DNA of 63,980 nt, the filler included, from Intoshia linei (taxonomy: Eukaryota > Animalia > Orthonectida), in NCBI GenBank assembly GCA_001642005.1. It is 7 parts of 7 records of this genome, joined end to end, with 100 filler letters (N's around TTAATTAATTAA, not from the genome) between each part and the next. Parts side by side here need not be neighbours in the genome. Positions count along the whole stretch, not along the records: positions 4,910 to 10,634 come from LWCA01001774.1; 6 more parts are not named here. One strand, written 5' to 3'. Shown here in pieces: positions 1,590 through 46,123 of the stretch (the stretch's first letter is position 1; each line of letters opens with the position of its first letter). The notes under the pieces are model-generated. The model was not told the origin of the DNA. It saw nothing but the letters and a program-made list of their open reading frames with translations, and ran no database searches. The translations under genes and the position numbers were made by a program.

Positions 1590-3339
1590 GTGAAAAGAAC
1601 ACGATCTGGCAGCACTGTATTGTTTGCTATACACATGTACTGGGTTGTCTTGTTATAATCAATTTAATTGTCAATTTTTGGTGACCCTAGTCTTCAGCCA
1701 CAAAATTACCATTACATTTTCAAGAGGGTACACAAGTTAGAAAATGTATGCAAATGCCAGCATACGTGGAAAAAATATTTTATCAGTTAAATTAATAACT
1801 GAAACGACCAAATAATGTCAAAATTAATGAGATATTTACTGCGAATGACTTGCAGGCAAATGCTGAGCAAGAAATTGCTAAATTTTTTTATAGTTCTGGT
1901 ATTTCATTTCACTGTGTTCAAAACAAATAATTTCTATGTGTAAGGGCAGTATATAAAGAGGTACCTTCATTTAACCACCAAGTAAGCATTTTTTATGAAC
2001 CTCTCTTCTCGATGTACAGTATAACCAAATAAAAAAAATGTTGATAGTATTTTTAATGTTGCTCTGGATTATGGGGTCACATTAACGACAGATGGATGGA
2101 AAGATGTTTCTGGCAATTCAATACTCAATTTTATCATTCTCACAGCAGATGGACCTATATTTGACAGTATAGATGATATTAAATGTTTCTTGAAAAATTT
2201 AATTATCTTAAATAAAAAATAAAATAATGACTGTAATAAACAAATTAGGATCTGAAAATGTCGTTCAAATAATAACAGCCAGTGCAGCAGCTAATATAAA
2301 AGCATGTGCATTGATACGTAATGATTACCATCAGATATATCATACAAGATGTGCATCTCATTGTCTTGATCTATTTATAGAGGACTGGTCAAAATTATAT
2401 AGTATGTTTACTGAAGATTCCTTGATAATTGTCAATTTTTTCAATAATAACAATATTCCACTGGAATTATTAAACAAATCTCACACTAAAGTGTGATTGA
2501 AACCGAACATAACGAGATTTGCCACGAATTATATAATGATAAACATAATATTGGAAATGAAATGTACGCTGGTAAATATTATAAGTGGATATGATCTCCA
2601 ACAATGGGTATCTTCGAAGTTGAATATTCGTAAATTTCAAATTACTAAAGAAAAATTAACATCTCCAACATTTTGGAACAGTGTAACTGAATATATCCAT
2701 CTTGTGAACCTATTTATGATTTAATAAAAGTGGTCTATTCTAATGAACAATCCTTATCTATATTATACCACAAAATGATAAACATTAAACAAAATATTGA
2801 TCAATTAAATGTTTTATTTAATGAAATAAAGAATCATTATAATTATCGTTGGGATATGATTTATTCCGATTTACATGGTACGGCATATATACTTGATTCC
2901 TTATTTTTTACGAAAAGTCAGCACACTGCTGTTAAAGCTATGTATGGATTTTGGAATACTGTTGAAAAATTATGCCCTAATGATGTGCAAGATATAATTG
3001 AAGAAATTTCCCGATTATCGAGATAAAAAAGGCATGTTTGGTCGACAATTTATAATATCATCCATAGGGACTATTCCTGCACATCAATGGTGGAAAAATT
3101 TTGGAGCTCAAGTTCCAGCTCTTCAAAAAATGGTAATTCAAATATTAAGTCAGCCATCAAGTAGTGGAACTGCAGAAAGAAATTTGAGTTTGTGGGATTT
3201 CATCGAAAATAAAAAAAGAAATCAAATGAAACCAGAAACATTAAATAAATTAGTTTTCATTCATGCAAATGGTAGACTACATGACAAATTGACTACTTCT
3301 AAATTTAATATAAATTATAAATACAAATTTGAAAAATGA
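1590..3339 (+). mobile_element. Degenerate hAT transposase (DUF659 plus hAT dimerisation domain) with stops and frameshifts
   Basis: LTTDGWKD, ENVVQIIT, CASHCLDL, TRFATNY, HQWWKNFG...LSQPSSSGTAERNLS spread over ORFs 2227, 2497, 2730 and 2998. Confidence 0.9.
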
Positions 3340-4809: not shown

Positions 4810-4909
4810 NNNNNNNNNNNNNNNNNNNNNNNNNNNNNNNNNNNNNNNNNNNNTTAATTAATTAANNNNNNNNNNNNNNNNNNNNNNNNNNNNNNNNNNN
4901 NNNNNNNNN
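4810..4909. other. Assembly gap spacer (also 10635-10734, 35644-35743, 52796-52895, 58445-58544, 62212-62311)
   Basis: N44-TTAATTAATTAA-N44, an artificial all-frame-stop linker. Confidence 0.97.
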
Positions 4910-5616
4910 AATGAATCATTTTTAGAAAAAATTATCACAGGAGATGAAAAATGGGTATTATGGAATTATACAAAATTGAAAAAACAATGGCTTTCACCAA
5001 ATAAATTCCCATTATGTACCCCAAAACCCAATTTACACTGTAAAAAGATTATGCTATGCATTTGGTGGTATATCATGAATTTCTAAAAAACAAAAAAACC
5101 ATTAATTCTGATAAATATTGTGAACAATTAGAAAAGTTAAATCACAATATTTACCTGAAAAGACCACTAAAGTTTCATAAAGGCAATATTATTTTACAAG
5201 ACAATGTTAGACCTCACACTTCTAAAAAAATTTCTCAGCTTCTAAAGGAGTTAAAATTTGAAGTATTACCACATCCACCGTATTCACCAGACTTAGCACC
5301 ATCTGATTATTACCTATTTAAAACTATGAGTAACCATTACTATGGTAAAAAATACACTTCAAATGAAGGGTTAAAATTGGACATAGAAAAGTTTTTGTCC
5401 AATAAAGAAGCGAGTTTTTATGCTAATGGTATAAATAGACTACCGGAACGTTGGAAAAAGACTGTGGAAAGCAATGGTGAATATTTTATAATATAACTTT
5501 ATTTTTAATNACTGTGGAAAGCAATGGTGAATATTTTATAATATAACTTTATTTTTAATGTAATCAAATAAACTTTTTAATTTTGTTAAAAAAACATTAC
5601 TTATGAAACGACCTAA
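4910..5616 (+). mobile_element. Mariner (DD34D) transposon, 5'-truncated by gap, frameshifted
   Basis: IITGDEKWV, QDNVRPH, HPPYSPDLAPSDYYLF; right TIR ...cattacttatgaaacgacctaa followed by TA. Confidence 0.92.
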
Positions 5617-6125
5617 TAGTATGAGATCTCATGAGGAAAACCCAATTTTACCAAAAATTAATATTTTCAAAATAAATTAATAAATAAAATTGTTCAGAAG
5701 GCCGCACTTTCCCCACCTCTGACCTAGACGTTGTAACTTTTGAGACAAATGACTACTTTATTTAACATGTATTTAAAAATGGAATTTTATTGATATTCAA
5801 ATAATGTACAATTTTATAAAATCATTTAAAAAATGATAGGTAATAGATTGATTTTATTAACAGAATCTCGTTATAATTCACAATATGCACAAGTTTTTCC
5901 TTATGTTTTTTTGGAAATATGTTGACGGAATAGTATTGTATAAACTCACACCTTGTTTGTGATTATATGGTTTCATATTTACCCTATAATTTTTGGTTAT
6001 TTTCCATCTTCTAAAAACCCACATTTTACGTTGATTATAAAAAGACCCATTGAATCACCAAATAGCTTGGAAAATTTCCCGTCTATTGAACATATCAGTG
6101 CATGGACTAATTTATAATTTTAGAT

Positions 6126-9100
6126 GAATTAAAAATAATATTAAATGATTTAAATCTGAAACAATATTCATATATATCTCAAATACTTAATGTGAACAAC
6201 TTGTCTGATTTCTTTGAATCAATATTACTCAAAAGAAACGACGACAAAATAATATTCAACAACATTGTCGAGTTGATTATATCTATTACCAAATGTTTAC
6301 TAACCAATAATGTACATATTGATAATTTTGAAAATGTTTTGGAGGCAGTTTGTACCGGTGAAATTAGACATGTTGTAAATTTGGACGTTTTTAATGTTCA
6401 TCTATTTTCTGATTTTACTAATCATTTCATTAACCTGTTTAATAATGCTATTCAATCTTATAAATGTTCTGTAAATTGTACTGGACAATTTGGAAATTAT
6501 TTAAACAATTATTTACTTAACCCAAACTCTCGAATTTTTATTTTTTATAGATATCCCCAAAAACATGATTTATCAATTAATCACCTTGTAGATAAAATTA
6601 TACCCATTAAATTGTATAAATTGAAGGACACTGAAGCATTTAAATTTCTAAAAAATTTGGAAAATTGGGATATATTGTTTGAATCATGTGTACACGCTGA
6701 AATATGTAATAAATTCTTGGAAGAATCAAATTTGAATTTTTTGTACAAAGGAAATGTTGATTTGGTTTTATACCCTAAATTAAAGATTGATAGTTTCATT
6801 AAAACAAAAGTAACAATAACCAGTGTAATTGATGAATCTTTAATGTGGGTTCAATCTGATTTAAATTACCGTCAAAAAAATGAAAAAATTTCAGATACCT
6901 TGAAGTTTAACATTGAGTGGTTTAAACCTGTTGCAAGTAATTTGTTGTATTTAAACGAAGGAAAAGTATATGGCCACATTCCGTTGCATGGAACAGCTAA
7001 TATTGTAATTTTGTTATATTACCGTTCTGATTTAACCACTTTTATTGATATTGTCACCGGAAGACAAATCCGTGTTGAGTTGGAAAATTTATATTACTTG
7101 AAAGAAAGAGTGATTAACAATTTGGAGATTACTCCAGCAATAATGATTCGCCTGAGTAAAGCAGAACCTTTCATTAAAAATCAGTACCTTATAAACGACC
7201 TTGTCGAAATTATTTACAATTTATACGCCAACCATCCAAGTGTGATAACTGACAAAATTGTTTATTTTCTTTTAATGCCCATTGTTTGGACTAAGACCAA
7301 AAACATTAATCATCTAATGCAAATATTTAAAAGCATTTTACATTATAAAAAATCAACACATGTTAATGTTGACATTATTATTAATAAAATTATGGAGTTG
7401 ATGCTTGGTTTGATTGAATCGTTCATAATTATCCAAGAAGTTGTTCCAAATGTATATTTGCAATTTTTGTTCAATCTGCAGAGAGGTATTAATCCAGATA
7501 AATATTCATCATGTTTAAAGAAATGTGTTGAACGAATAAATGTCAGAGAATTGTGTCAAAACTTTAAAGATGAAACTGTAATTAAAAATTTTACGAATCT
7601 TGTGCGTGATATTTTGTCAGTAAAAATATGTCATCAAGAATATGACATTACTCAATACAACGAAAAATGTAGAGTTACAAATTTGCGAATTTTTGATAAT
7701 GGTACTTTTATTCAGGATGATGGACATTATTGTATTCAAAATATGCCAAATCGAAATGAAGCGGTTGATTTTATGTATGTCACTGAGAATAACAATAAAT
7801 TGAAAAATTATACTTCAAGTAACCTCTTGGAGGTTTGTGGGTATCAATGTATGGAATTTAAAAATACACGTACACAATTAGATGATAAAATTACAATTCG
7901 TTTTGATGGGAAGAAAGAATCTTATTGCTTTCAAAATTCTAGTTTTCCGGTTGACGTTAGATATTTAAATAATGATAAAGTGTGTATGAATGGGGTGACA
8001 AAAAAATTTGATAATATGAACATGAATTTTGAAGATTATAAAAATTCAAATATTTTAACAAATAATGATAATAGAGAATTAACTTTTTACGAGAGATTTC
8101 ATCCTTGTCAGCCTGATCATGTTGGAAATTTTCACCAAACAATAACTGTCAATAGGGATTCATATGAGAGACAAAATAAAAAATTTTGTCAAGGAAATAC
8201 AAAAAATAATATAGGGATTACGCATCAAAGTAGAGCTATTGAAAAGGAAAATTCGTACCAAAGAAGTAATGTAAATAATAATTACAGACTAAAAAATAAT
8301 AGAAATATTCAGCAAAATTTTCAAAATAATTCTCCTCAAAATAATAATTACAATAGAGGAAACAGAGACAATGTACCTAATAGAAATTCACAACAAAAAT
8401 TTGGAAATAATTCTCCACAAAATGATAATTATAATAGAGAAAACAGAAACAATGTATATAATAGAAATTCACAACACAAATTTGAAAATAATAACCGACA
8501 ATATGATCACTCTATTAGAGGAAATAGAAATAATGTATATAATCATAATAATAGAAATTCACAACAAAAATTGAAAAATGATTATTCTAATAAAGAAAAC
8601 AGAAATAATAAAAATTCACATCCAAAATTTGAAAATAATAATTACAATTCACATGAAAAAAACGAATCTTTGCAAAATGGAAATAATTATAAACAAAAAT
8701 TTGACAATGAAAAGTACAGAAACAATACAAGGACTTATTCATCGAAACAGAAACGGTTTGAACGTATAGATATATCTAAAGATGTGTGTTTGTTTGAAAA
8801 CAAGCAATTTCAACTTGACGAGGTTGTTGACTTTTCAAATGCCGGTATTTGTTTATTTCTCAACAAGAAAACAATATTTGATTATAACATTGCTGAAATT
8901 CAAAAACATTTATGTGCTTTGTTAAATACTGGTGGAGGTAGATTGTATTTTGGATTTGAACATTGCGATGACAATACAGCTATTGCCAAAGGTGTAAGCC
9001 TAAAAAAAGAATTTCGTGATGCGATACGGGTACAAATTGATAGATTTTATTCAGGAATTTATCCTAAACCAATGCCAAATAGTATCAACCTGTTTATCTA

Positions 9101-9228
9101 TGATATTATTGTACACAATAGTCGAGTGTTCCAGGGAATGGTTATTATTGGTAATTTTTATGTATTTCAAAAAAATCGGACCTACTTTTGAAACAGGTGA
9201 TATAGGGGTCAGAATATACTGGAATTGA
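6126..9228 (+). CDS. ~1000-aa protein: extended Tudor-like domain, helical region, N/Q-rich repeats, C-terminal Schlafen/AlbA_2 domain (5' exons unresolved)
   Basis: Large open exon 6124-9150. Tudor-like VTITSVIDESLMWVQ...FIDIVTG...LENLYYL...PAIMIRL; AlbA_2-like IQKHLCALLNTGGGRLYFG...AKGV. Probable intron 9151-9196 and last exon to 9228. Confidence 0.75.
8298..8650 (+). repeat. Coding tandem repeat, 81-nt (27-aa) period, ~3.5-4 copies
   Basis: NRNIQQNFQNNSPQNNNYNRGNRDNVP / NRNSQQKFGNNSPQNDNYNRENRNNVY / NRNSQHKFENNNRQYDHSIRGNRNNVY. Confidence 0.85.
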
Positions 9229-10449
9229 TTTTGTTCTATTCAAAGTATAAAGTTAGAATCTTAGAATTAGAATTTTTTCGAATCCGCGATATTTTTTACT
9301 TGTGATGTGCTTAAAAAATCTTAGGTTCTTTATTTCTTTGACAGAATTGGCAGTCCTAGGTTTGATTATTATATTTTTTAATGTTGCCTAATAATTTATC
9401 TTTAATGGTCCGCAATAAATTTTATAATTTATTACCTGTCCACCGTGAAAAAAGTGGGAACTCTTTTAATTATGTTATATATATTATACCATTTTAATTA
9501 TACAGTTTATAACTTAAACATTTAGAAATATTAATATTGGACAACGGTTACAAAGGAAAATTTAAAGTGAACGACGTTATTTATAATGTTATCAACAACA
9601 AAGTTGTATTTGATCAATAAATTATTTAAATATACCGTTAAATATTACGAAACATTAAATTTTAGCCCAACTTCCAACAATGTTTCACCTTATCGCGTTT
9701 ACAATAACAATATTTTTTTGAAACTTTACACCGTTAATAACGGTAAATACGTCGTACAATTTACTTATATAAATTAGAATAGTTACAAATGTATGTTTAT
9801 TGTAATGTATGTCTGTTTATTTGTTCCAGTTTACTTAAAGTAAGGGAGTAAAGTTTTACAAATTCCATATTCTTATAACCGTTTTTCCAGAGTGTTGTTT
9901 TATCGCAAATTTCAATTTCAGAAATTAAGTCCTTCCAACTTAAAAACACAAATTTTTATTTAATTTAAATGTTAGCAATGCTGAACATTGAATCTGTTTG
10001 TTTAGTTTTATTTCAATATCCAACATTATTTTAATAAAATTATAGTTTTAGTTATTTAATTTAAATTAATTAATTATTTTTTTAATTTAATATTTTCAAA
10101 AAATTACATTTCAATTAAAAAATAGGTTTACTATATAGTAAATCAGTAAATAGAATAAAATATAAATACAATTTTTTGTAAGCGTAATATACAGATTCCC
10201 TTTTTTTAAATAAATGTATTATCCCTTTGCATTATTAAACCTCCTCTTTTGCGATTTAGAAGCATTTTAAATTTAACATGATTTAAAACTTGAGTACATA
10301 AAATCGTAACTAATTTTGAAAAATGTTTTTAAAACTAGATTGCAAAGGGATTGGCGCGTTATATAATAAAATGTTAATATTTCTACATTAAAGTAATAAT
10401 CATTTAGCGAATATAGAATTGGCAGTTATAAAATTGTGGAGAGAATACT

Positions 10450-10565
10450 ATATTTGAAAAAATTAATACATTGAACACATCAATGCAAGGTCCAATTACT
10501 AATTTTATCGTTGTCAGAGACAAACTCAATGCATTAATTAAAAAAATGGATATGTGGATATGGGT
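10450..10565 (+). pseudogene. Buster/ZBED5-type hAT transposase fragment
   Basis: IFEKINTLNTSMQGPITNFIVVRDKLNALIKKMDMW resembles the DIFxxLNxLNxSLQG...DKI...KLxLW motif. Confidence 0.55.
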
Positions 10566-10981
10566 GTCACATCCATTGTGTACTTGTAATTTTTCACTTT
10601 CTTAATAAAGTGAAGTTTTAATAAATTTATATTTNNNNNNNNNNNNNNNNNNNNNNNNNNNNNNNNNNNNNNNNNNNNTTAATTAATTAANNNNNNNNNN
10701 NNNNNNNNNNNNNNNNNNNNNNNNNNNNNNNNNNCATATTTCTTAAGATATCAAAAAAACAATTATTAATTGCTTTTTTTATTGTATTCCGTATCAACTC
10801 TACTGTTAAAAAAATATCGATTGTCTTTATGGGGCGATAATTTTATTTTTGTTGAAAAATGGGCGATTCTCCAAAAAAGGTTAAGAACCACTGACATACA
10901 TTATACATGTAGTTATAAATTATAATTTATATAATTTTTGTGCTATCTGCAAAATAATTAAAGATAAAACCAATTACTTAG

Positions 10982-12764
10982 TATGACATGCTTGGTAGTT
11001 CCTTTTTTTCCATTGTGCATAAAGACGACCATTCACTATTAAAGCATCAAATAACCGACGAAAAAAATGTTCCTTTGGCGCGTAATAATTATTTAAATAC
11101 TTTTAAAAGTATGCTAGGTGGAGATAGGCGTGAATTTTTTTTGCGTATTTTGGATTCTAAGAATAAACAATATCCATGGTATCAATTTTGTCACGTAAAT
11201 GGTTTTGTCCGTAAAATCCCCCTTAATTCAAATGGTAATTTTCGTAATATATCGATTAATATAAAATCTGAAGAAAACGATAAATGTGAAAATTGTTACA
11301 TTTTCATACTTCGAGGGTTGATTAATTTAACAACTTCAATGATTTATACACCTTTCATGGAATCATCTCGATGTCAATGGTACTGCAGACATTCTGTCGA
11401 TGGCAGAATACTTCAAACAGACTCAAAGTATTTTTTTAATATTTACATATAAAAAGATACTTTTGTATTATTAACAATAAATAAATATGTAAATTAAAAT
11501 ATTTACGTAGATATCTATATTTCAAAACAATTTAGAATAAATTGGATAAGTGGATTCATGAGCAATGAAGTTCTAAATTCATCTCCTTATTTTTTCCTAC
11601 ACCATCTTGATATTGATTTTTTAATTGGAATTCATAATACTTGTAATTTTTTTTATTTTCTTAATTACATTTAGTTCTAATTACTGGTTGTGCTCCGAAA
11701 TTTGTTACACGATTTTATGATAAATCATTAAAGATTTTGTACGTTCTCACTGAACTGAAGTATATTGACGCGGGGCAATCCTACCAAATCATATCTATGA
11801 ATCAATTATTAAGGTAAATATTATTACATATACACATGTAATTATAATATATTTACATGTAAATTATACATCTTTACTTGGCAGTGTCTATTTTTAAAAA
11901 ATGTACTACAAAAAATTACCGTAAAAACCATTTTTAGAATACAGTGAAAAATTTTTTATACCACCCGCTAAAAAGAATAGTAAAATTTCTAATTATTTTT
12001 GAAACTTTTAATGGAAAATTTCTTTAAACATTAATTAAAGTGGTAAATGTTATTCCTGGATTATAGACTCTTATGATTCATAGTCTGTTTCATCAGTTTT
12101 GAGAAAAATATACATGCCAAGTAAAAACATAAAGGCGTTAATACTGATCGATATATAATTTAGTGTTAATGAAGGAACTTACATGTGGGAAAAACAACAG
12201 AGATGCATAAACAGATATAATTCAAGCAAAATAAATAACAATAGTAAATTTGTCAAAAATAGTGTTTTTTTGAGAGATAACATTCTCACAGTTATAACAA
12301 ATCAGCGTGAATATCAAATGAAAGTACATGGACATTGTCCCTATATTAAACTAAAATACACTGAACCAACATTTTTAACTTCAGATTGCACATCAAACAT
12401 ATTACCTTCATCCGTTCCAATGAAGAGTGAATTAAAATTCTCAACAAGAAAAAACTATCAGTTGCCTTTTACGAGTGATTACAAAGAAAAAGAAAACAAA
12501 GATTTTGAAAATAAATGGGCAAAGTATTATACATCAAAACATCTTTTGACCCTAAAAAACATACAGAAAAAATTAGTTACACATTTAGTCGAAACGTCAA
12601 ACGTGTACCCTTCAAACTGTAATTTTTTGTCTAATATTTGCACACAGTCAGATAACAACAAAAGCATTTGTAATCTTCTATTCCGCCAAATCGATAAAAA
12701 CATTGAAAAACCTCTTGTCGATAGCCGTATTCAATGCAGCAAATCTGTATCAAATAAACAGTAA
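10982..12764 (+). CDS. PAS-domain protein, probable bHLH-PAS transcription factor, 5'-truncated; exons ~10982-11428, 11536-11642, 11675-11812, 12164-12764
   Basis: PAS-A end MLGSSFFSIVHKDDH...EFFLRI; PAS-B WYCRHSVDGRILQTD...SGFMSNEVLNSSPYFFLHHLD; GT-AG introns. Confidence 0.8.
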
Positions 12765-37392: not shown

Positions 37393-39792
37393 TTACCAAT
37401 TCCAATCAGTGTTTGATGGACGTCTTTCTGTGTCATCGGATGATTCCATTGTATTTGACTTATCAATACTATTTAGTGACTCTTTAATAGGGATTATTGG
37501 GTTATTGTGTGTATAATTTTCAACTGACTGGTGTGTCGTTCCAGAATATTCGGATATTACCTCCTATTTGTTGGATTAATTTTATAATTTAAATTTACAG
37601 GTATGGTTTCACTAGATTCTGCAATTTTTTCATACATGGTTGCAAATTGGTTAGATGTCATTTTTTTATTGATTGGAAATTCAATCATTGAAAAATAATC
37701 CTTAAAGCACGCAGCTTTATCGATGTAATCTTTTTTTTCTGGTACGGTTTTGATGGAAGAAGCAGTACTGTCTAATGATACTGGTAATTTTTCAAAATTT
37801 GCAAATGTACCTTTCCTATTTGGTATGATGGTGAGTTGAATGGATTCATTGGCAAACGAAGGGGTTTCCTCTACTAAACGAATATACGTGTTATAAAAAG
37901 TGCCAACCTCTTTTATTAAACAGATTGATACAACATGGAAATATATATTCTAACAAACCCATATTTAAAAATTTGTTATCATGGCTATTTATAATTATAA
38001 ATGTATATATGACCTACAATTTTTTTTATAGTTGAATAGATTTGGGACAATTGAACATAATACTAAATATAAATGTTTATTACATTTTGGTAATAAGTCA
38101 ATTTCCTAATAATATCTAGACTTGGACTTGTGGTGTAGAGGTTTTGAGTTGTTTGAGATTTGAAACATCATTGAGAGAATAATATTTATGTAATTCATTG
38201 AATTGGTGTGTTTTATTTTGAAAGCATTTAAATTTCTCACCAAAATACTTGAATCTGTTAATATTTTGTTTGGAATAATTATTGCAACGAATGAGATAAT
38301 ATAAAGCGTCAATCTCCGCCTCAATGTGTAAAAATGGTAAATTTTGAGTAATAAAACACGAGTTTTCTAATGTGTCACCTTTTTTGTTGACATTACCATG
38401 CACAAAACTCTGATTACTTGAAATTATGGAACTGCAACTGCTGGAATATACAATTTTGTTGCAAACAACTCGTTTCGATATTGACGTGTTTCGTATGTAC
38501 TGTGTGTTGAGATTCATTATGTTCAGCGTGCACTGGCGTTTAATCCAACTACAGAGAACATTTTCGTTCAAATTATATTTTTGAAAATTGAATTGTTTGA
38601 ACGGGTAGATACAATGTATCAATGTTGTTGTGCTAAGGAGAATGGGTTTACTTTGTTGAGAGTAATTGTACTCAATTTGCGCATTGTCATCAAGCTTGAG
38701 TAAAAATAAAGACACGTATGATTCGCAAATGTTGTCAATCACTCTGTAATTGTTAGTTTTTATTTTTTTTGATTTAAAAGGTTCATAGAAAAGATTTGAT
38801 TCGTATTTCAATTTTTGCGAATGGGAACTTTTTAATATTTTTCGTGTTTTTGTACCATTTACGTCAATTAGCTTTATATGAATAGGTAAACAAAATTCTG
38901 CCAATTTCTTAGCTTCAAAAACGCAATTATCCATTAAACTATCATCGCCAATTCCTGTAGTGAACAATTCTTTGCAATTAAAATTTCCATGGTCGGCGAT
39001 GGGACTGTAAAGACCTTTTTGCTCATATTCAAAATATACGGTGGTGCCATTGGACATGTTACAGCATATCATACTAATCTCTTTGACATTCCAATACTTG
39101 GTTTGTATTTTGGTTGTAATTTTATCCATTAAAATTAAGACTTCCCCCGCTTTGACGAGAACAGAATCTGATTCATTGTAATCAATAGAGTACACATTCT
39201 TCCTAACCAAAAACCTACCTTTCAGTTCGACAAGATGCGACAATAATTTTATCGTAGCACATGGCGGCGCTGATGTGAGAGATTGGGATAAAATTTCAAA
39301 ATAACATTGGTACTCCAGTGGTATTATGGCTAAATCTGTGGAATTTTTAGTATATTGGCCGGATTTTTGAATCAGTTCTAATTTGTGATATTTAAAGTAA
39401 TTCACATTGTGTGATTCACACTCATCTCGATGATTCAGCATTTTGCGGTTATTAGATTTGATTTGCTTACTATTGGTTATGTATGAATCTTTTTTAGACT
39501 TGTCAATAATTTTGTTCAATTTTTTCTTGCTATAATTCAAAATTCTCGTGTACGACAAATCTTCAAATTTTGATGGTATTGGCTCTACCAGTAAACCTAT
39601 TCAAATTTTAAAATATACATTACATTAAATTCAACCTTTGCAATACACAGTCTTGTTCAAATAGAAAATTTCCTTATCCGACTTTAATCCGATGGATCTC
39701 AAAAAGTGGCCATCATCTATAATGCAAAAATGCTGCTCCCCATTTTTTATAATATAATCTTGGAAATTACATTCTCTTTTATCTAAACCCAT
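37393..39792 (-). CDS. CABIT-domain protein (THEMIS/GAREM/Serrano-like); large exon ~38120-39595
   Basis: IIPLEYQCYFEILS, VKAGEVLILM, ICCNMSNGTTVYFEYEQKGLYSPIA, LPIHIKLI, EAEIDALYYLIR resemble Serrano-type CABIT motifs. Confidence 0.7.
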
Positions 39793-45110: not shown

Positions 45111-45418
45111 CAATAATAAATAGGTGATTGAATCTCAGCGAACAATAAACATACAAATTAGTTATATCAGACATTGGTTATTTTATTAATAACCTGGATA
45201 ATTTCCCATAGACTCTTTACAATCCCAATGGATGGCAAAGACTCTGGACTTAATTTTTAATATTTTGGAACACCCCTAAATTAGAAAAATAAAATTTTTT
45301 TCTGAAGAATTCTCGAGAATAAGCATTACACACACCTGTTCATATATCACAAGTTTTGACTGTATACGCATTTTATGAGTAAATATTTGTATATTGTAAA
45401 ACAATTTCATTTCTCGAA

Positions 45419-46123
45419 ATGTTGTTCAAAATTTTGTTAATTTTTGCTTCAATTGGAATAGCGTACAATCTAGTTGTGAAAAAAAATAATGTCACTCCAA
45501 CTTTAGTTAATGCTAAATTACTTGTCGAAAAATACAAAGATGTTTCAATTAAAGTTAATGATATCGACGTGGGAAAATTTAAAAAAATACTGGTAAACAA
45601 CATACAATTATTGGTGGTAGAAGCAAAGCGTGTTGGTTTTGAATTTCTAGAAAATATTCAAACACTTGAATGGAATGATTTTAAAAATTCACCTGAAACA
45701 ATAATGTTTAATTTAATACGATTTTCTTCAGAAGTTAAATTAGAATTCATTCGAGGTTTAGCCACAATTACTTCAGATTTAGTTAAAGTATTTGTTCAAA
45801 ATTTGGATGTTACCGGAATCATTAAAAAGGTTATATATAGAATTGAACCGGCAAAATTAATTAAAATGATTCTTGATGTTAAATCTGAACATATAAACAA
45901 ATTAATTACCGACCTTGAAATTGATGCAAAACGGTATAAATTGCATATTTTGGCTAATAAATTAGCTACAGCTTTGGTTGAACATGTCGATACAACACAA
46001 TTGGTTAAAATTATATTATCTGATATTAATCTTAAAGAAATTGTTCGTCATAAATTGAAAACAACTGATGTTAACGATATTGTGCAAAGGATTATACACA
46101 ATGTTAACCTAAAAAAATTATAA
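45419..46123 (+). CDS. Secreted 234-aa single-exon protein with 13-residue amphipathic repeats
   Basis: Signal peptide MLFKILLIFASIGIA; repeats EHVDTTQLVKIIL/SDINLKEIVRHKL/KTTDVNDIVQRII. Confidence 0.75.
   Translation: MLFKILLIFASIGIAYNLVVKKNNVTPTLVNAKLLVEKYKDVSIKVNDIDVGKFKKILVNNIQLLVVEAKRVGFEFLENIQTLEWNDFKNSPETIMFNLIRFSSEVKLEFIRGLATITSDLVKVFVQNLDVTGIIKKVIYRIEPAKLIKMILDVKSEHINKLITDLEIDAKRYKLHILANKLATALVEHVDTTQLVKIILSDINLKEIVRHKLKTTDVNDIVQRIIHNVNLKKL

Follow-up and report, generated by a model that had tools for sequence, protein, structure and literature searches.

A spliced gene of Intoshia linei joins a probable extended Tudor domain to a likely inactive Schlafen/AlbA_2 domain

Results

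Gene identity and exon structure

The stretch of DNA analyzed here (the “window,” 63,980 nucleotides of the orthonectid Intoshia linei, taken from assembly GCA_001642005.1 as seven parts joined by filler) carries the gene A3Q56_07729, which encodes a hypothetical protein of 1042 amino acids (aa) and lies in the part from LWCA01001774.1 (positions 4910–10634). A search with the whole protein, covering 5912 candidates, returned the protein itself as its sole match. Residue numbering throughout is that of the A3Q56_07729 record (P0002), and all features of the gene are on the plus strand. The large internal coding exon (6124..9150, with an acceptor AG at 6122–6123 and a donor GT at 9151–9152) is supported by protein identity, by an open frame of 1026 codons (6111–9191), the chance of which at local composition is about 1e-43, and by spliced contigs in three of the four runs whose contigs we compared over 5960–9720. 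These three runs (X2, X3, and X4) come from one study, and their kind is not on record; each has one contig, of 3.26–3.36 kb, that spans 6123–9149, omits 375 nt with GT..AG ends and picks up at 9525/9526, whereas the DNA-type run X1 covers the intron with no splice joint. X2–X4 are taken as RNA-derived solely from their splicing (no run with matching contigs is recorded as RNA), and the contigs carry no information on level, strand, or tissue.

Because the spliced contigs cover 6123–9149 in one piece, the domains all share a single exon within one spliced product, which bears out the original prediction, made from the sequence of this window, of a large single exon carrying all domains in one chain. 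That prediction had also placed the end of the gene at 9228, with a last exon at 9197–9228; this segment falls inside the 375-nt GT..AG intron (9151..9525), and the last coding exon is instead 9526..9620, which is joined by splicing from 9150 to 9526, supplies the remaining part of the AlbA_2 domain, ends in a stop codon at 9618–9620 and agrees with the NCBI model. At the other end, the X2–X4 contigs hold 155–231 further letters 5' of 6124. The frame stays open through the 30 letters of this extension that were examined, the extension was sought in the window and not found, and at least one 5' exon thus lies outside the window. Since the extension is open in frame and absent from the window, the NCBI model probably falls short at the N-terminus, by as many as ~77 residues.

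At seven coding positions (6544, 6669, 7127, 7498, 8143, 8645, and 8718) the window disagrees with all four runs, and six of the seven differences alter a residue. They spare the Schlafen motif and the cage positions described below, and reflect either an allele or assembly error.

The C-terminal Schlafen/AlbA_2 domain

Sequence comparison confirms the C-terminal AlbA_2/Schlafen domain that had been proposed for this protein, the first part of which (aa 893–1011) is encoded at 8793..9150. Pfam PF04326 matches with an E value of 1.8e-7, scoring 32.2 bits on the piece and 25.3 bits on the whole protein, the latter equal to the cutoff of 25.3. A Schlafen query against 1.84 billion representatives gave nine matches, namely the protein itself and eight AlbA_2 proteins (E 1e-4 to 9e-4; 26–46% identity), three of the eight also having an RRM match. 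The profile of these nine sequences matches SLFN14, 11, 12, 13/8, and 5 chains with E values of 8e-12 to 2e-7 (14 PDB Schlafen sequences) and found 213 further proteins, of which the 120 listed have AlbA_2 alone, with or without RRM. One AlbA_2 stretch was found in the I. linei chain; a very divergent second lobe could escape a sequence search.

The catalytic motif E-x4-EFK falls on N908-x4-L913-F-L915, so that N908 (8838), L913 (8853), and L915 (8859) stand in place of E, E, and K. The same columns in 132 relatives hold the first E in 81, the EFK glutamate in 129, and a K or R two places on in 130. This register has a posterior of 0.99 in a profile of the relatives only and is given by three domain-level alignments; in addition, E206 of SLFN14 aligns to N908, anchored by the correct fall of K218, K219, V220, and R223. 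Mutation of E206 abolishes SLFN14 activity (PMC13245857). One full-length alignment picked a D905 register instead. The posterior of D905 at the EFK position is 0.63 without the upstream strand and below 0.01 with the full profile, and the segment QLDEVVDFS, which the original prediction had read as the E-x4-EFK equivalent, is therefore misregistered.

With the EFK glutamate replaced by Leu, and with N908 and L915 at the other two positions, the Schlafen domain is likely a pseudo-nuclease, as had been cautiously allowed for. Two observations count against this. An Asp is still possible at the third acidic site, which follows the G-x-x strand and has a four-residue insertion at 8961–8972 (posterior of either D951 or D952, 0.42; individually N953 0.36, D952 0.22, D951 0.21, and H949 0.20), and the first and third acidic sites are variable among the relatives too (E in 81 and D in 91 of 132).

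Two observations concern the relatives themselves. A 596-aa AlbA_2 protein (P0003) shares with the I. linei protein the Asn and F-L replacements in the catalytic motif and is one of only two among 131 motif-covering relatives to be without the EFK glutamate. The proteins P0005–P0134, mostly on contigs of ~2 kb, form a large eukaryote-like family with a helical N-terminus, an AlbA_2 domain with intact EFK and often an RRM, and are possibly undescribed protist Schlafen RNases.

A probable extended Tudor domain

Residues 227–352 (6795..7172) probably form an extended Tudor domain of the Tudor-SN type with a degenerate aromatic cage. The coordinates proposed for such a domain in the original prediction match our best alignment; detection by standard means did not follow, since aa 215–400 gave no Pfam, NCBIfam, or PDB sequence match and no Tudor (PF00567) was detected there. 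The assignment comes instead from an Atlas feature search and from our own profile (z 2.3–4.1). For aa 215–400 Atlas returned Tudor clusters with a best score of 0.79, which is a lead only; TUDOR clusters occupied two of the three rows shown, and all ten of the best named hits share family or clan. The profile was built from domains on metagenome contigs (a pattern search gave 0 viral, 3 genome, and 120 metagenome loci), and all eight frames checked were PF00567. Removal of eight non-extended or intron-broken loci took the set from 85 to 77 domains, and a later set of 106 domains was reduced to 56 by a redundancy filter.

Local scoring with the 56-sequence profile matched the N-terminal strand and helix alone (4.9 bits, E 0.0013), and hhalign gave an E value of 0.005, above all 367 decoys. 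End-to-end (glocal) scoring with the own transitions of the hidden Markov model gave z 3.1–4.1, with aa 227–352 aligned over the whole profile with short gaps, a score reached by none of 400 shuffles, one of 400 block shuffles, and one of 386 real decoy windows. A number of results weigh against the assignment: shuffled proteins reach the range of the Atlas score a third of the time; the hhalign match has a probability of 7% over 31 columns; a simple end-to-end position-specific scoring matrix gave z 2.3–2.6, equalled by 17 of 485 decoys; the null is lenient, as the disordered window aa 760–920 reaches z 1.9–2.5; aa 520–680 scores as high as aa 227–352; and several scoring schemes were tried.

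At what we take to be the cage positions (four aromatics plus an Asn), the best alignment keeps F309 alone of the four aromatics, the others being Pro, a gap or aliphatic, and Ile, and the Asn is replaced by Arg. With one of four cage aromatics kept and the cage Asn an Arg in this alignment, methyl-arginine reading by the putative Tudor is unlikely. A YYN cage mutant is named in PMC10711660. A second, more decayed Tudor-like unit is possibly present at aa ~520–680 (7674..8156), where z is 0.8–3.3 depending on the window and the alignment is unstable. As a separate matter, two of the loci (L002 and L003) are eukaryote-type Tudor motif frames on short contigs of bacterial metagenome-assembled genomes, and L002 looks like eukaryotic contamination.

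Other regions of the protein and the surrounding window

The N-terminal region (aa 4–226; 6126..6794) continues into the upstream exon and belongs to no known family, with no Pfam, NCBIfam, or PDB match; the idea of a degenerate P-loop domain in aa 80–200, prompted by sequence motifs, found no support in Pfam or PDB sequence searches. Between the probable Tudor and the possible second unit lies a predicted helical region (aa ~353–500; 7173..7620), also of no known family, whose helices appear in a low-confidence model (predicted local distance difference test score 38–49). The hydropathy peak over 19 residues (1.78, at aa 421–439) falls in this region and includes Lys and Glu; a clear membrane helix was sought by hydropathy and none was seen, the C-terminus included (the true N-terminus lies beyond the sequence scanned). 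The low-complexity region rich in Asn, Arg, and Gln (aa ~700–885; 8214..8771) is basic (34 K+R, 16 D+E) and contains 3.1 copies of an 81-bp (27-aa) repeat at 8296–8543. Its Asn content of 30% over aa 691–885 fits the N-rich disordered region that had been predicted. PDB sequence searches with three pieces gave chance rows only (polyubiquitin, TRAF3), Pfam found no RRM in the protein, the chain of which ends with the AlbA_2 domain, and a profile of 115 protist helical N-termini scored below 0 bits on all four pieces of the I. linei protein.

The window, an AT-rich (23–30% GC) animal scaffold, contains remnants of mariner, gypsy, and IS4-type elements, and the neighboring genes (ASF1, GWT1, a class I tRNA synthetase, and a CABIT-like gene) are unrelated. 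Just upstream of the gene, at 4910–5496, is a mariner transposase fragment identified by Pfam, and by eye ~1800–3300 appears to hold what we take, from motifs, to be decayed hAT-type transposase pieces. The first intron or an assembly gap must fall in the stretch that holds the mariner and hAT-like pieces, the contig of the gene beginning after a gap that ends at 4909. Elsewhere, a 494-codon frame at 38116–39600 (minus strand) matches CABIT weakly, below the cutoff (E 4e-4), and a 246-codon frame at 45383–46123 (plus strand), with a signal-peptide-like start, helical character, and no Pfam match, is possibly a secreted orphan. Exons at 10982–12764 (plus strand), which had no Pfam match and which by eye we presume to resemble a PAS-domain gene, stand tail to tail with ASF1, the frame of which ends 16 bases away.

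Discussion

A possible scaffold in germ-cell RNA granules

By analogy with the nematode proteins TOFU-1 and TOFU-6 (PMC10567574), a germ-granule or small-RNA role is plausible. Our preferred reading, which we hold tentatively and at somewhat less than even confidence, is that the protein is a non-catalytic scaffold of germ-cell RNA granules, resembling the Caenorhabditis elegans protein TOFU-1 joined to a Tudor of the TOFU-6 type. The Asn-rich region would drive granule entry; the Tudor would dock partner proteins via its SN-like face, with no methyl-arginine reading, as for TOFU-6/TOFU-1 and Vreteno/Gtsf1L; and the dead Schlafen fold would either retain RNA or team up with a Schlafen partner that is active, the single fold contributing the half without catalysis to an RNA clamp of two folds, as TOFU-1 does for TOFU-2. 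The pathway so served could be small-RNA (PIWI-interacting RNA, piRNA) control of transposons. Such a role has precedents: cage-independent binding by extended Tudors has been described for Vreteno and Krimper (PMC10711660), and the extended (T3) Tudor genes of animals are nearly all linked to the piRNA pathway (PMC12147562). I. linei itself has three PAZ-PIWI proteins and a genome with 41.8% repeats, 30.2% being unclassified (PMC7943196).

Several points tell against the scaffold reading. The identities of the three I. linei Argonautes, which may or may not include a Piwi, were sought in supplementary data and not found; Orthonectida are counted among the parasites with reduced Tudor sets (PMC12147562); no active Schlafen partner or paralogue from I. 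linei was among the nine matches of our one query (E up to 0.001); and every step past domain content, including germline expression, granule localization, partners, and the Piwi link, is inferred. A narrower version, in which the protein is the one-chain equivalent of the TOFU-6 extended Tudor plus TOFU-1, supplying the docking half, without catalysis, of a spiralian nuclease that processes piRNAs by means of Schlafen folds, we consider quite improbable. As for the original proposal that Piwi/methyl-arginine binding is coupled to RNA cleavage, it finds no support because both of the functional sites it needs are degenerate: the EFK glutamate is Leu, and the cage keeps one of four aromatics and lacks its Asn.

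Alternative explanations

The protein could be a non-catalytic RNA-binding regulator working outside the piRNA pathway (in mRNA, tRNA, or translation control), like SLFNL1 or the protist AlbA_2 plus RRM proteins, with the Tudor, if real, serving as a generic protein-docking module. We regard this as unlikely, if still a serious contender. In its favor, the closest relatives by sequence are AlbA_2 proteins of eukaryote-like character, of which many carry an RRM, and our analysis showed no Piwi link; SLFNL1, moreover, is a testis-enriched single-fold protein that is dispensable for spermatogenesis (PMC10567574). However, the N-terminal domain of the protist proteins is unmatched in I. linei, no RRM was detected by Pfam, and animal extended Tudors are mostly piRNA factors (PMC12147562). 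A different objection is that the Tudor call is simply wrong and that the protein is a fast-evolving orphan, made of N-terminal folded domains of no known family, a disordered region, and a dead Schlafen fold. The silence of Pfam, NCBIfam, and PDB sequence searches over aa 215–400, the absence of the WYRA and DYGN hallmarks, and the modest profile statistics all speak for this; yet three anchors (an N-terminal strand plus helix, then the F-I-D strand with the Val/Leu spacing that follows it, and a C-terminal strand ending in Pro) are correctly ordered and spaced in a single end-to-end alignment, and the independent language-model search with Atlas points to Tudor as well, so that on balance we find an erroneous call unlikely.

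To our mind it is very improbable that the Schlafen fold is an active RNase which the Tudor guides to methylated Piwi, with a metal site rebuilt from the nearby acidic residues E902, D905, E948, D951, and D952. This reading would draw on the D905 register, favored when the upstream strand is left out and chosen by the full-length alignment, and on the third site, which may be an Asp. The full profile and the three domain-level alignments contradict that register, though, neither the first Glu nor the Lys is present even in the register of the original prediction, and only one of the four cage aromatics is kept.

Novelty and significance

The modules of this protein are known; in our limited searches we found no account of them joined in a single chain in which both sites are dead. 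The Schlafen part, searched against proteins of 573–1824 aa (244 candidates, word-limited), recovered only itself, Atlas gave no usable match for the whole protein, and these limited homologue searches found no relative with the Tudor plus AlbA_2 architecture. Word-limited searches have little power for a protein this divergent, and absence of an orthologue is not implied. A limited literature search, which also took in PMC6396948, found no published Tudor plus Schlafen/AlbA_2 fusion, and the word Tudor does not occur in the portions available of bioRxiv 10.1101/2024.01.12.575368 or PMC12680541.

PUCH of C. elegans is the only known case of piRNA processing by Schlafen folds, and its connection to a Tudor domain is a weak contact between two proteins. 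An animal outside the nematodes in which a likely Tudor shares a chain with a dead Schlafen fold would be a natural hint that the two act together more widely. If the protein were indeed a one-chain equivalent of TOFU-6 and TOFU-1, Schlafen-driven piRNA biogenesis would be either older than nematodes or have evolved twice, and would be no nematode oddity. The finding points to a concrete search of annelids and other spiralians, for genes that combine Tudor with AlbA_2 and for the active partners of such genes. That the strongly reduced genome of a parasite retains and splices a protein of this kind, of 1100 residues, is notable as well. The value of the finding is limited by an unproven Tudor and a single species.

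Comparison with known systems

The closest likeness in architecture is to TOFU-1 of PUCH and TOFU-6 of PETISCO. C. elegans TOFU-1 has one Schlafen fold without catalytic residues, along with low-complexity regions, pairs with the catalytic TOFU-2 and docks on the extended Tudor of TOFU-6 outside the cage (PMC10567574); the I. linei protein likewise has a single Schlafen fold with no identifiable catalytic residues following low-complexity sequence, and a probable extended Tudor in the same functional unit. These are two proteins in nematodes and one chain in I. linei, and the likeness is one of architecture. A PUCH-like nuclease is built from three single-fold Schlafen proteins, one of them catalytic, has a mitochondrial transmembrane anchor (SLFL-3/4), cleaves precursors in a cap-dependent way and is needed for piRNAs to accumulate (PMC10567574); the I. 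linei protein is not known to have a partner, cleavage of this type, or a membrane anchor.

The piRNA scaffolds with extended Tudors (Vreteno, Krimper, and the TDRD family; PF00567) share with it a probable Tudor-SN unit and a disordered region, but the I. linei unit is far below Pfam detection and its cage is degenerate; a Schlafen domain was found in none of the 115 Tudor-bearing frames fetched, many of them partial. The nearest sequence relatives of the Schlafen domain are the helical plus AlbA_2 (with or without RRM) proteins P0003–P0134, which differ, among the 120 listed, in their length (~300–640 aa) and in having no Tudor annotation, and further in an N-terminal domain unlike that of I. 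linei, and in that nearly all keep the EFK glutamate. Vertebrate SLFN11, 12, 13, and 14, as well as SLFNL1, have the AlbA_2 fold, with the profile aligned across the catalytic motif; the SLFN proteins have two lobes where I. linei has one fold, and the I. linei protein has lost the EFK glutamate and lysine and has no helicase. SLFNL1 carries its Schlafen domain at the C-terminus, as I. linei does, yet keeps its catalytic residues (bioRxiv 10.1101/2024.01.12.575368).
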